Positions 9,001-12,000 of a DNA stretch of 18,229 nt are shown here, one piece after another. The stretch is from positions 1 through 18,229 of IMG/VR virus record IMGVR_UViG_2778261567_000023. One strand, written 5' to 3'. Position 1 is the stretch's first letter. Every line of letters begins with the position of its first letter. The DNA comes from a virus (lineage: Duplodnaviria; Heunggongvirae; Uroviricota; Caudoviricetes). Made by a program: the position numbers.

Positions 9001-12000
9001 GTGGATGAGGCTGTTGCTGCTCAGGAACGCTTCTACCGGAATGGCAGCACGAAACGCATTCAGAAAGCGCAGCCAGCAGTCAGTGACGCAGAGAAGGAAA
9101 TGTTCATCAACAATCTCCGCGCCGTCTGTCATAACTTCCGGCGCATCAACGAAATCTGGCGGGCGCAGTTAATGCCTGCTCTCGAAAAAATGGATTCGAA
9201 ACTGGTTTACCAGTTGCATGACCGCTTCAGCGACAGCATGTGCATTCTGCCGACCATAGAAGACCGCATCGGCAGATATATCCCACCCACTTTACCTCGT
9301 TAATCCTTCAGTTCGCCCCTGCTCAGCCAGGGGCTTTTTATCACCGTTTAATTTACGGAGGACTTCGTTTTGTCTGAAAACACTGATTTAAAAAAGCAAA
9401 GTATCAGACCTGTAATATCATTTGGCCTGATACTTACTTGCATCTATTTTCAATAATTGGGAATTATACTTCTTTATAACGCCTCGTCCCGGAAAAAGAA
9501 ACCAAAACATAAAAGCCATCCATATACACAGCAACATTAAAACAGCGCCCATTCCTATAAAAACAGCGCCATAATTTAACGACCAACAGAAAAATATCAA
9601 GCCATCAGCCAAATAAAAGATAGAAACAACTTTAGAACACCAGCGACATCGTTTGTATTTACCTTTGTAGCGTATAAAGAATCTATCGTATTTACACTGA
9701 ATATGGGGTGCTAAATAACCCCACTGCCAAAACGGCATTTTCAATTCAGAATACGTTCTGACATAAATAACTAACGTTCTTAATTTCTGGCTACTTATAC
9801 CTAATATACTTTTTTTAACTTCTCTTTTGATTTCTGCCTTCATAAACTCTACATCAGAAGGCTCAATATGCTCCGGATAATTCTTCAGAATATGCGAGAA
9901 TTTTGTTGTTTTCGGTAAAAACCAACTAGCATCTTTAAATAACTTATAAACACCGACTGGTGCAGTTATGGCTGAAATTATGACTCCAACAAGTGAGATA
10001 ATATCTTTCGTATCCATGTAGCTAATTCTTCGGAGTAAATACAATGTCCAATATACTATGGGGCGACCTGGAAACTTTCTGTGAAATACCTATCAATAAT
10101 GGCACCCATGCGTATGCCGAAGGCGTTGAAGTGATGCTTTTCGCATGGGCTATCAACGACGGGCCAGTAAACGTGTGGGATATCACTGCCGGTGGTGGTA
10201 TTCCACACGGCTTATACGAAGCAATCGCAGACCCTGAAACCCTGCTTTATTTCCATAACTCTCACTTCGACCGCACCGTTCTGCGTTATGCAATGCCGCG
10301 ACTGGCACCGCCAGTCGAACGTTGGCGCGACACGATGGTGCAGGCGTTGGCGCACGGTCTCCCGGGGTCTCTGGGGGAACTCTGCGAAGTACTAGGCGTC
10401 CCGCAAGACAAAGCGAAGGACAAAGAAGGTAAAGCGCTGATCCAACTGTTCTGTAAGCCACGCCCGAAAAACAGCAAACTGCGCCGGGCCACCAGCAAAA
10501 CCCACCCGGAAGAATGGCGGCGCTTTGTTGCTTACGCCGGACTGGATATCGAGGCAATGCGCGAAGTCTATAAACGTCTGCCGAAGTGGAATTATCAGGG
10601 GACAGAGCTGGCGCTCTGGCATCGTGATCAGCAGATCAATGACCGGGGCGTCTGCATGGACGTGGAACTCGCACGCGCTGCGATCGACGCGGTAGACCAG
10701 GAACAAAAGCGCCTGGCAAAGCGTACACAGGAAATGACTGATGGCGAAGTGCAGGCAGCAACACAACGGGACGCGTTGATTAAGCACATCGTTGAATCCT
10801 ACGGTGTGGAGCTACCAGACATGCAACGCAGTACTCTGGAACGTCGTATAGCCGACCCCGATTTACCATCTGCCGTGAAAGAACTGCTGGCTATCCGCCT
10901 GCAGGCCAGTACTACCAGCACCAGTAAATACAAGGCACTGATGAAAGGCGTAAGCCACGACGGGCGCTTACGCGGTACGCTACAGTTCTGCGGGGCGTCA
11001 CGTACCGGTCGTTGGGCCGGACGGCTATTCCAGCCCCAGAACCTTCCCCGCCCTTCACTAAAACAGGAACAAATAGACGAAGGCATCGAAGCACTGAAAG
11101 CCGGATGTGCAGACCTGCTGTTTGACAATATCATGGAACTAACCAGTTCAGCGTTACGTGGCTGCATTATCGCGCCAACAGGCAAAAAGCTGGTGGTAAG
11201 TGACTTGTCGAACATTGAAGGCCGTATGCTGGCATGGCTGGCGGGAGAAGAATGGAAACTGAATGCATTCAGAGAGTACGACGCCGGAACGGGTCCGGAC
11301 TTATATAAACTGGCGTATGCAAAAGCTTTCGATATTGCACCAGATGATGTTGATAAACACATGCGTCAGATCGGTAAAGTCATGGAACTCGGTCTGGGTT
11401 ATGGTGGTGGTGTGTCGGCCTTCATCACTTTTGCACTGGTTTACGGTCTCGATCTCGACGAGCTGGCGAACGCCGCACTACCAAACATTCCCCGCGATGT
11501 TATCCGCGAGGCGAAAAGCTGGTACGACGAATCGGTTAAACGCAAGTCAACCTACGGGCTTTCTGAACGGGTATTTATCGCCTGCGACTCACTTAAACGT
11601 CTCTGGCGCCGGGCGCATCCCGCGACCTGTGATTTCTGGTACGATCTGGAGCGCACCGTCCGCACTGCAATCGCCACACCGCAAAAAACATTGTATTGCG
11701 GTTATCTTAAAATCCGCCGCGATGGCGCGTGGCTGCGCATACAGCTACCATCCGGACGCGCAGTATGCTACCCGTCTCCGGTTATCGAAAAAGGGAATAT
11801 CACCTACATGGGTGTTAACTCTTATTCGCGTAAATGGCAACGACTCAAAACCTACGGCGGAAAGCTGGTAGAGAACGTCACCCAGGCGGCCGCCCGCGAC
11901 GTTCTGGCCGGAAACATGCCGCTTATCGAAGATGCCGGTTACAGCATTGTGCTGACGGTACACGACGAGGTGATCACCGAAGCACCTGACACAGAAGATT

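Follow-up and report, generated by a model that had tools for sequence, protein, structure and literature searches.

Why does an AT-rich gene run against the replication operon of a Shiga toxin (Stx)–converting prophage, and what might its product do there? The stretch of DNA analyzed here, termed the window, comprises the 18,229 nucleotides of IMG/VR virus record IMGVR_UViG_2778261567_000023 (Caudoviricetes). Its plus strand, on the cI side, carries an operon of the early-left type in which genes for a DUF2800 nuclease, an Enc34-type single-stranded DNA-binding protein (SSB), a BRO-N/Ant protein, and a family A DNA polymerase follow one another, with a gene for an SNF2 helicase further downstream. 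The prophage of Escherichia coli STEC435, which adjoins yfhL and carries stx2b and a Q antiterminator, matches the window at 100% over the 801-bp stretch queried, as do several other strains. The gene in question lies on the minus strand between SSB and polymerase. It is a genuine protein-coding gene and accessory cargo in a variable slot, and its product, a predicted inner-membrane protein, may be a factor that excludes other phages. The gene and the two borders of its slot are as follows.

9418 to 10017, minus strand: gene for a 199-amino acid protein, RefSeq WP_000379840.1 'hypothetical protein', recognized by its open reading frame (ORF), the ratio of nonsynonymous to synonymous substitution rates (dN/dS), a match to phrog_10579, and an AlphaFold2 model
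7609 to 8157, plus strand: gene for the Enc34-type SSB (DUF2815), left border of the slot; Pfam PF10991, E 1e-44, 95–100% nucleotide identity to prophages L003 and L004
10044 to 12107, plus strand: gene for the family A DNA polymerase, right border of the slot; Pfam DNA_pol_A, phrog_17

The initial annotation of this DNA had described an AT-rich island between the terminator of the BRO-N gene and the polymerase start, the only long ORF of which opposes the operon, and its composition bears this out. Sliding GC content is 0.33–0.37 over 9301–10050 versus 0.52–0.57 on both sides, and the comparison of the gene at 9418–10017 with its neighbors, which that annotation had suggested, gives the same picture: GC is 0.345 in the gene (0.33 at third codon positions, with all codon positions equally low) and 0.48–0.55 in all neighboring genes. 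The sole long ORF of the island occupies minus-strand positions 9418–10044, where the ATG at 10017 yields 199 amino acids. The view that such a frame arose by chance, or is what remains of a decaying gene in an AT-rich spacer, could draw on the lack of a promoter consensus and on the weak Shine-Dalgarno sequence of the window allele. However, none of 2,000 dinucleotide shuffles of 9386–10043 reaches the observed stop-free run of 207 codons (shuffle mean, 65 codons), and Nei-Gojobori dN/dS for the gene is 0.12–0.32 against five alleles, with dS up to saturation. Moreover, homologues of exactly 199 amino acids occur in genomes named Escherichia, Klebsiella, Enterobacter, and Citrobacter, and these are 50–98% identical, gap-free, and share 64 invariant columns. 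The window allele itself is 100% identical in six IMG/VR contigs and has 99.9–100% nucleotide identity in seven E. coli genomes. This signature of selection refutes the chance reading, which is hardly credible; the gene is real and under purifying selection. Rfam detected no RNA family within the AT-rich island.

The signals at the ends of the gene are listed here with the terminator of the upstream BRO-N gene.

9315 to 9334, then a T-run, plus strand: terminator of the BRO-N gene, found by a consensus terminator scan
9390 to 9439, minus strand: intrinsic-terminator-like hairpin with stems at 9439–9424 and 9410–9394 (16–17 nt), the stop codon in the loop, and a U-run at 9393–9390
10018 to 10043 (26 bp), between the divergent genes: intergenic region with both ribosome-binding sites, from sequence and allele comparison
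10044 to 10098, minus strand: putative promoter location of the minus-strand gene, with a –10-like TATATT at 10055–10050 and without a –35 element

The BRO-N terminator, the private minus-strand terminator, and the back-to-back starts of cargo and polymerase had all been noted in the initial annotation and were all recovered. As RNA, the hairpin at 9394–9439 folds at –19.5 kcal/mol with a z-score of –3.69, and none of 200 shuffles folds equally well; it is missed by a simple consensus scan because its loop is 13 nt, longer than 8 nt. The two start codons are 26 bp apart in the window. Because the divergent start codons of all prophage alleles are separated by just 23–46 bp, a promoter for the minus-strand gene must fall within the first polymerase codons, and the cargo promoter thus probably lies inside the polymerase coding sequence. 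The –10-like TATATT would set the start of transcription about 26 nt upstream of the ATG, although its sequence is also constrained by polymerase coding. The TGGACA-18-TATTCT site of L004 has no usable counterpart in the window. As for translation, the polymerase gene has the Shine-Dalgarno sequence GGAG, the minus-strand gene of the window has GAAG, and most other alleles have AGGAG or GGGAG.

The gene is also part of a unit with a history of its own.

9374 to 10098, both strands: exchangeable cassette made up of the gene, its terminator, the 26-bp divergent leader, and the first ~55 nt of the polymerase gene, delimited by breaks in identity

In sliding comparisons with L003 and L004, nucleotide identity is 95–100% in the SSB gene, drops sharply at the SSB stop codon, and returns to that level only some 55 nt into the polymerase gene; window position 9374 is where alignment with the L003 allele starts. 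Over the cassette, identity is 70–88% or the sequences are unalignable, versus 95–100% outside it, and the first ~55 nt of the polymerase gene (10044–10098) are 83–85% identical to relatives versus 95–100% for the remainder. Comparison with an allele 69% identical to that of the window gives a dS of 0.58 for the gene and of 0.086 for the polymerase next to it. Against L002 and L004, SSB and polymerase are 98% identical and the membrane protein 23%, and, overall, prophages with flanks 95–100% identical carry alleles that are approximately 23–69% identical. A family allele sits at the equivalent place, on the minus strand and abutting the polymerase start, in phage vB_EcoM-689R2 and in L003, L004, L006, L007, L056, and L059–61, where it encodes 192–233 amino acids. 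This excess of dS and these breaks in identity beside near-identical flanks indicate that the cassette has a history of its own and that recombination in the conserved flanks exchanges it.

The module as a whole is carried by 159 of 5,426 complete E. coli genomes, Stx-converting phages included. A direct search located a 209-amino acid allele in 67 complete E. coli genomes and 199-amino acid alleles in 11, whereas the alleles of L007, L059, and L056 were not found among complete E. coli genomes. As sampled among the 159, the E. coli slot holds the 209-amino acid allele, a 199-amino acid allele, Nmad5 together with an 89-amino acid two-transmembrane protein, or BRO-N alone, and the flanks of the Nmad5-type and BRO-N-only prophages are at least 97% identical. 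In other genera, where the polymerase is 55–90% identical, the slot is either a gap of 26–270 bp or is occupied by other AT-rich minus-strand genes, several with an N-terminal transmembrane (TM) segment. Homologues therefore occupy variable sites in related prophages, which the initial annotation had proposed to check.

It had also called the gene a horizontally acquired moron. The gene is indeed accessory cargo, or a moron, in a variable slot of a lambdoid Stx2b prophage: it has its own terminator, deviant GC content, and both allele replacement and presence/absence between near-identical phages, although its promoter was not identified. The dS values and identity breaks agree with a separate mosaic cassette; a one-off acquisition does not fit, since divergent alleles recur at the slot.

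The fixed position between SSB and polymerase in many Enterobacteriaceae prophages might instead mean that the protein belongs to the replication module, for example as a membrane anchor of the replisome that co-evolves with SSB and polymerase, and its basic cytoplasmic domain (described below) could bind DNA. However, the gene is absent from modules in which polymerase and SSB are 85–98% identical (L009–L011 and the Nmad5-type and BRO-only E. coli prophages). Furthermore, the alleles do not co-vary with the flanks, the gene has the opposite orientation and its own terminator, and family members occur outside any replication module. The replication module thus works without the gene, and the anchor reading, largely refuted on this ground, is highly improbable.

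Several side observations concern this slot and its surroundings. In the Nmad5 E. coli prophages, the 89-amino acid two-TM protein (L086 1574–1843, minus strand) is unrelated to the family and abuts the polymerase start; different small membrane proteins recur there. At the equivalent position in Xenorhabdus, minus-strand genes with GC 0.31–0.34 (L023 7387–7947, L024 7273–7833, L025 6608–7372, and L028 6626–7378) encode proteins of 186 and 250 amino acids with one N-terminal TM segment; they have no Pfam match, and the two that were scanned have none in PADLOC. An Enterobacter prophage has a 228-amino acid DUF4145 protein with a CxxC...CxxC N-terminus and a weak PADLOC match to PD-Lambda-5_A (L027 6597–7283, minus strand), and small ORFs fill the slot in further prophages of other genera. 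A second variable slot lies directly 3ʹ of the polymerase gene (window ~12108–12500); it contains an Ant gene in STEC435, nothing in L003 and L004, and a TIR-like (CAP12-PCTIR_TIR) gene in L002 (8504–9265), L007 (5093–5854), and L060 (1831–2589).

To which family does the protein belong? The window protein matches PHROG 10579 ('unknown function') at E 7e-4, with residues 38–192 aligned to positions 21–179 of the 182-position profile, and 22 of 23 aligned members match the same profile, the best at E 7e-107. It is therefore a distant member of this family. An exhaustive profile search of 1.84 billion representative proteins returned 21 clusters at E ≤ 1e-3, one of them seemingly spurious, of 190–240 amino acids save for several short fragments; the family is small and narrowly distributed. 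The alleles, of which there are at least four classes with 18–30% identity between them, occur in P4 satellites, integrative elements, and plasmids as well as in lambdoid prophages. All members examined are AT-rich (GC 0.30–0.40; flanks, 0.39–0.61).

The remark in the initial annotation that the protein has no recognizable motif agrees with the library searches, in which no Pfam, PADLOC, PDB-sequence, or fold match was obtained for it. Pfam, in a copy that lacked a SieA model, gave nothing significant for the window protein or for any of the 23 aligned members; the best matches, to DUF2207_C (E 0.003) and FA_desaturase (E 0.002), are noise from TM composition. A search of PDB sequences with the family profile gave a best E of 0.13, and a Foldseek search of the PDB with the AlphaFold2 model gave no significant match (best E 0.73). 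Additionally, tblastn of the window allele found no match among INPHARED phages, and a literature search on the protein accessions, the PHROG identifier, and the DUF2815/DUF2800 module found nothing relevant.

The predicted architecture of this ~23-kDa protein is that of an inner-membrane protein with four parts.

Residues 5 to 24: first TM segment (TM1)
Residues 26 to 128: basic, helical cytoplasmic domain
Residues 129 to 176: hairpin of the second and third TM segments (TM2–TM3)
Residues 177 to 199: cytoplasmic tail

Hydropathy places the hydrophobic segments of the window protein at residues 5–24, 129–147, and 150–176, and the net charge is +13 over residues 26–132 and +5 in the tail, which matches the hydrophobic helices at both ends and the basic middle noted previously. 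All 26 members of the alignment keep this layout, in which an N-terminal hydrophobic helix precedes a soluble domain of about 100 residues; a pair of adjoining TM helices comes next, and the last 20–32 residues form the tail. Across these members, the soluble domain has a net charge of +6 to +17, the tail is basic in most, and the N-terminal stub is neutral or acidic in all but one. The positive-inside rule places both soluble domain and tail in the cytoplasm. An AlphaFold2 model built from the 26 sequences has a mean predicted local distance difference test (pLDDT) score of 81.6; an earlier model from a shallow alignment, with a pLDDT of 54.7, was unusable. The model has helices at residues 3–29, 36–46, 53–72, 77–89, and 96–105, a beta-hairpin at 106–115, TM helices at 120–146 and 151–172, and a tail helix at 178–188. 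The topology prediction that the initial annotation had proposed therefore gives three TM segments by hydropathy, by the charge pattern of the 26 members, and by AlphaFold2, and the protein is predicted to span the inner membrane three times, with the N-terminal stub outside and the loop and C-terminus in the cytoplasm.

Conservation is concentrated in few residues. P176 is the sole residue invariant across the family, and F113, R125, and N185 are nearly so; P176 and N185 belong to a tail motif, [FY]P..K.I..[YI]N..LLK[IV]D, also written [FY]P[GST]xKx[IA]xx[YIM]NxxLLK[IV]D. The family alignment contains no catalytic-looking motif.

Where else do members of the family reside? One that is 30% identical (P0016) is found in a P4-like satellite, in the interval between psu and cII and next to a PADLOC candidate, PDC-M36A. 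This neighbor is a 479-amino acid protein (L057 5260–6699, plus strand; E 2e-47). The locus of P0016 is the psu-int hotspot of P4, a documented reservoir of antiviral systems (PMC9122126); a 2026 study that picked eight unknown P4 hotspot loci at random observed protection against phages by six (PMC13586616), and no system named there resembles the protein studied here. A second member (P0022) is 220 bp from a full-length Dsr1, in an element that also has a TrwB-type coupling protein and umuDC-like genes. Together with the SieA-like anatomy compared at the end of this text, these two contexts lend contextual support to an exclusion function.

Other members point elsewhere. Two (P0020 and P0014) are on plasmid-like contigs, adjoining parAB/Rep3 and Hha, with no adjacent defence gene, and the family also occurs on two Pantoea plasmids. 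The protein could accordingly serve in the membrane as an accessory factor unconnected with defence, for example by modulating a host transporter or envelope machine (lysogenic conversion), by tuning lysis or induction, or by stabilizing the element as an addiction-type toxin. The failure of defence databases to recognize the family fits such a role, as does the enrichment of TolQ, ExbB, and ZorA chains, three-TM proteins with the N-terminus out, in the non-significant Foldseek list. Yet alleles that diverge to an extreme while selection is purifying and the flanks stay near-identical are typical of conflict genes, and members do occur in the P4 hotspot and beside Dsr1. Moreover, the alignment with TolQ (hhalign E 0.28) and the TM-scores of the Foldseek matches (0.21–0.28) are poor, and no antitoxin-like partner is present. 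A non-defence role is somewhat unlikely.

The preferred reading is that the gene encodes a prophage factor that would exclude other phages at the inner membrane, and we hold it to be evenly poised between right and wrong. Under this proposal, the protein would be made from the prophage independently of the opposed early-left operon, presumably in the lysogen, and would keep other phages out by acting at the inner membrane. Its likeliest mode would be that of P22 SieA, namely, a block of genome transfer across the inner membrane, and divergent alleles would confer different target ranges. An entry block of the SieA kind specifically is possible, though doubtful. P22 SieA has been located experimentally in the inner membrane and is both necessary and sufficient to block delivery of P22 DNA, and escape mutations map to the ejection proteins gp16 and gp20 (Leavitt et al. 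2024, PMC10883804).

A number of observations weigh against exclusion at the inner membrane. Predicted periplasmic exposure is tiny (a 4-residue stub and a loop of ~3–6 residues), less than expected for a blocker of a trans-envelope channel, and conservation is highest in a cytoplasmic part, as would be expected just as much of a sensor or regulator. The argument from genomic neighborhood draws on just two defence-adjacent loci. PADLOC has no match in the window protein or in five other members, save one chance-level SLATT match. Alignment probabilities with SieA are 5–9%, far below the level accepted for homology; type B SieA alone aligns over 13 columns (E 0.097); and the tail of the protein has 9 residues from P to N versus 7 in SieA, lacks the E-A pair, and does not conform to the SieA motif. 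Finally, the window allele has a weak Shine-Dalgarno sequence (GAAG), and a sigma-70 consensus promoter for the minus-strand gene was not found in the window.

Some of these observations would suit an abortive-infection effector better. In such a scheme, the cytoplasmic domain would sense a phage product or incoming nucleic acid, and the TM2–TM3 hairpin would oligomerize, depolarize the membrane, and kill the cell before phage release; the protein would be a single-protein analogue of RexB-type effectors or of the two-TM effectors of retrons and cyclic-oligonucleotide-based anti-phage signaling systems (CBASS). The little periplasmic exposure is consistent with this, as is the better conservation of the cytoplasmic domain than of the TM segments (dN against L006: residues 26–128, 0.26; TM2–TM3, 0.70). 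The same mobile-element and defence contexts (P4 hotspot and Dsr1) apply to it, and the usual interpretation of TM proteins in P4/P2 hotspot systems is that they act as suicide effectors (PMC9122126). However, the family has no homology to RexB, SLATT, or any PADLOC effector, no conserved partner sensor gene is adjacent, and the TM hairpin is without the conserved polar or charged residues that would suggest a gated pore. An abortive-infection effector is thus quite unlikely.

Two further proposals extend the exclusion reading. Tentatively, and with more doubt than confidence, PHROG 10579 could represent the first family of a hitherto undescribed anti-phage system, one that consists of a single inner-membrane protein, has no relation or only an ancient one to SieA, and has swappable alleles that set the range of exclusion. 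As a longer shot, the TolQ/ExbB-like topology might serve as a decoy that poisons the Tol- or Ton-dependent import used by phages and colicins.

Should exclusion of other phages at the inner membrane prove correct, the family would be added to the small number of exclusion factors that, like SieA, consist of one protein; not many of them have been characterized, and defence-finding tools largely overlook them. The SSB-polymerase junction of a common Enterobacterales prophage type would then be a cargo hotspot with a logic comparable to that of the P2/P4 hotspots. Alleles whose proteins are 23–69% identical while their flanks nearly coincide form a natural panel for comparing specificity. Furthermore, exclusion genes of Stx prophages are relevant to co-infection by toxin phages, and to the replacement of one by another, in pathogenic E. 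coli.

The slot contains one more insertion, outside the cassette.

8402 to 9344, plus strand: second insertion in the SSB-polymerase slot, made up of a C4 antisense RNA, the BRO-N/Ant gene, and its terminator
8402 to 8488, plus strand: C4 antisense RNA (Rfam RF01695, 76 bits, E 1e-13), directly 5ʹ of the BRO-N/Ant gene
8503 to 9303, plus strand: BRO-N/Ant gene (Pfam Bro-N, PHROG anti-repressor)

The window carries this insertion and L003 and L004 are without it; it sits between SSB and the cassette and is independent of the latter. The C4 RNA and BRO-N/Ant form a P1-type c4-ant immunity module within the slot, and a 58-amino acid 'hypothetical protein' coding sequence in RefSeq overlies the C4 RNA (L001 11016–11192). 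A second AT-rich island, at window 13051–13576 (GC 0.33), has another minus-strand gene within the plus-strand operon; this gene (13223–13567, GC 0.357) encodes an Arc-family ribbon-helix-helix protein (Pfam Arc, E 2e-10).

How does the protein compare with known membrane systems? For SLATT proteins, the evidence is slight: the single PADLOC match, to RTasSLATT (E 0.049), covers soluble residues 36–90 of the window protein and has no equivalent in the five other members scanned. DUF4231, which we take to be SLATT-related, matched 2 of 23 members at E 0.024, and no reverse transcriptase or cyclase neighbor was present at the loci examined. SLATT membership was rejected.

The group of TolQ, ExbB, MotA, and ZorA shares more of the predicted design: three TM segments with the N-terminus out, a cytoplasmic domain between TM1 and TM2, a TM2–TM3 hairpin, a cytoplasmic tail, and a length of ~200–240 amino acids. 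TolQ, ExbB, or ZorA chains make up 15 of the top 50 Foldseek PDB matches, none of them significant. The cytoplasmic domain differs, however, being composed of short helices in the protein studied here and of long TM extensions in the TolQ group. Membership in the MotA/TolQ/ExbB group was rejected on the Foldseek and E. coli TolQ hhalign values given above. Among Pfam families at E ≤ 1, MotA_ExbB is absent from the 25 represented best (8 more lay outside that list), and a TolR/ExbD-like partner gene is not present.

SieB and RexB had been offered in the initial annotation as examples of comparable factors, but hhalign found homology to neither. RexB gave E 0.14 and a probability of 0.4%; it is a four-TM protein, whereas the protein studied here has three hydrophobic segments and no rexA-like neighbor. 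SieB gave E 0.58 (lambda) and 0.44 (P22), with a probability of ~0.1%. SieB is an abortive-type exclusion function. Its gene resembles the minus-strand gene of the window in that lambda and P22 sieB, which encode ~185–192 amino acids, run against the PL operon and are moderately AT-rich, and P22 sieB has its own annotated promoter. The layout of the protein is unlike, since SieB has its hydrophobic stretches toward the N-terminus and a soluble C-terminal half.

SieA is the closest comparison, in the gene as well as in the protein. SieA genes, like the minus-strand gene of the window, lie on the strand opposite their neighbors and are similarly AT-rich (GC 0.337 in P22 and 0.363 in HS1, versus 0.43–0.49 in the flanks), although only SieA has an annotated promoter. 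Both are small proteins, with a membrane location that has been shown for SieA and is predicted here, and both diverge into types or alleles at one fixed slot; SieA types A–C are ~25% identical and share one slot (PMC10883804). The slots themselves differ, being between P22 genes 16 and 9 for SieA and between the Enc34-type SSB and the family A polymerase of a different prophage type here. The cytoplasmic domain of the window protein is also twice that of SieA (~100 versus ~50 amino acids) and includes a beta-hairpin. In hhalign, the family and SieA type A aligned over 66 colinear columns spanning TM2, TM3, and the tail (P 0.0074, probability 5.3%), and addition of type B SieA, retrieved only as copies 97–100% identical, changed this to P 0.0039 and a probability of 8.6%; in a local-shuffle control of the SieA profile, 1–2 of 150 shuffles reached the hhalign score. 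The best-conserved SieA motif, FxRYPxEAxxFNK, lies on the cytoplasmic side after the last TM segment (PMC10883804), and the tails of the two proteins share the pattern aromatic-P ... aromatic-N-x-x-hydrophobic-hydrophobic-K. The order of segments in P22 SieA (164 amino acids) and HS1 SieA (212 amino acids) is likewise that of the window protein: a TM segment, a cytoplasmic loop, two further TM segments, and a conserved cytoplasmic tail. The profile similarity is suggestive yet well short of proof, and the protein is here likened to SieA in its possible action rather than assigned as a SieA.

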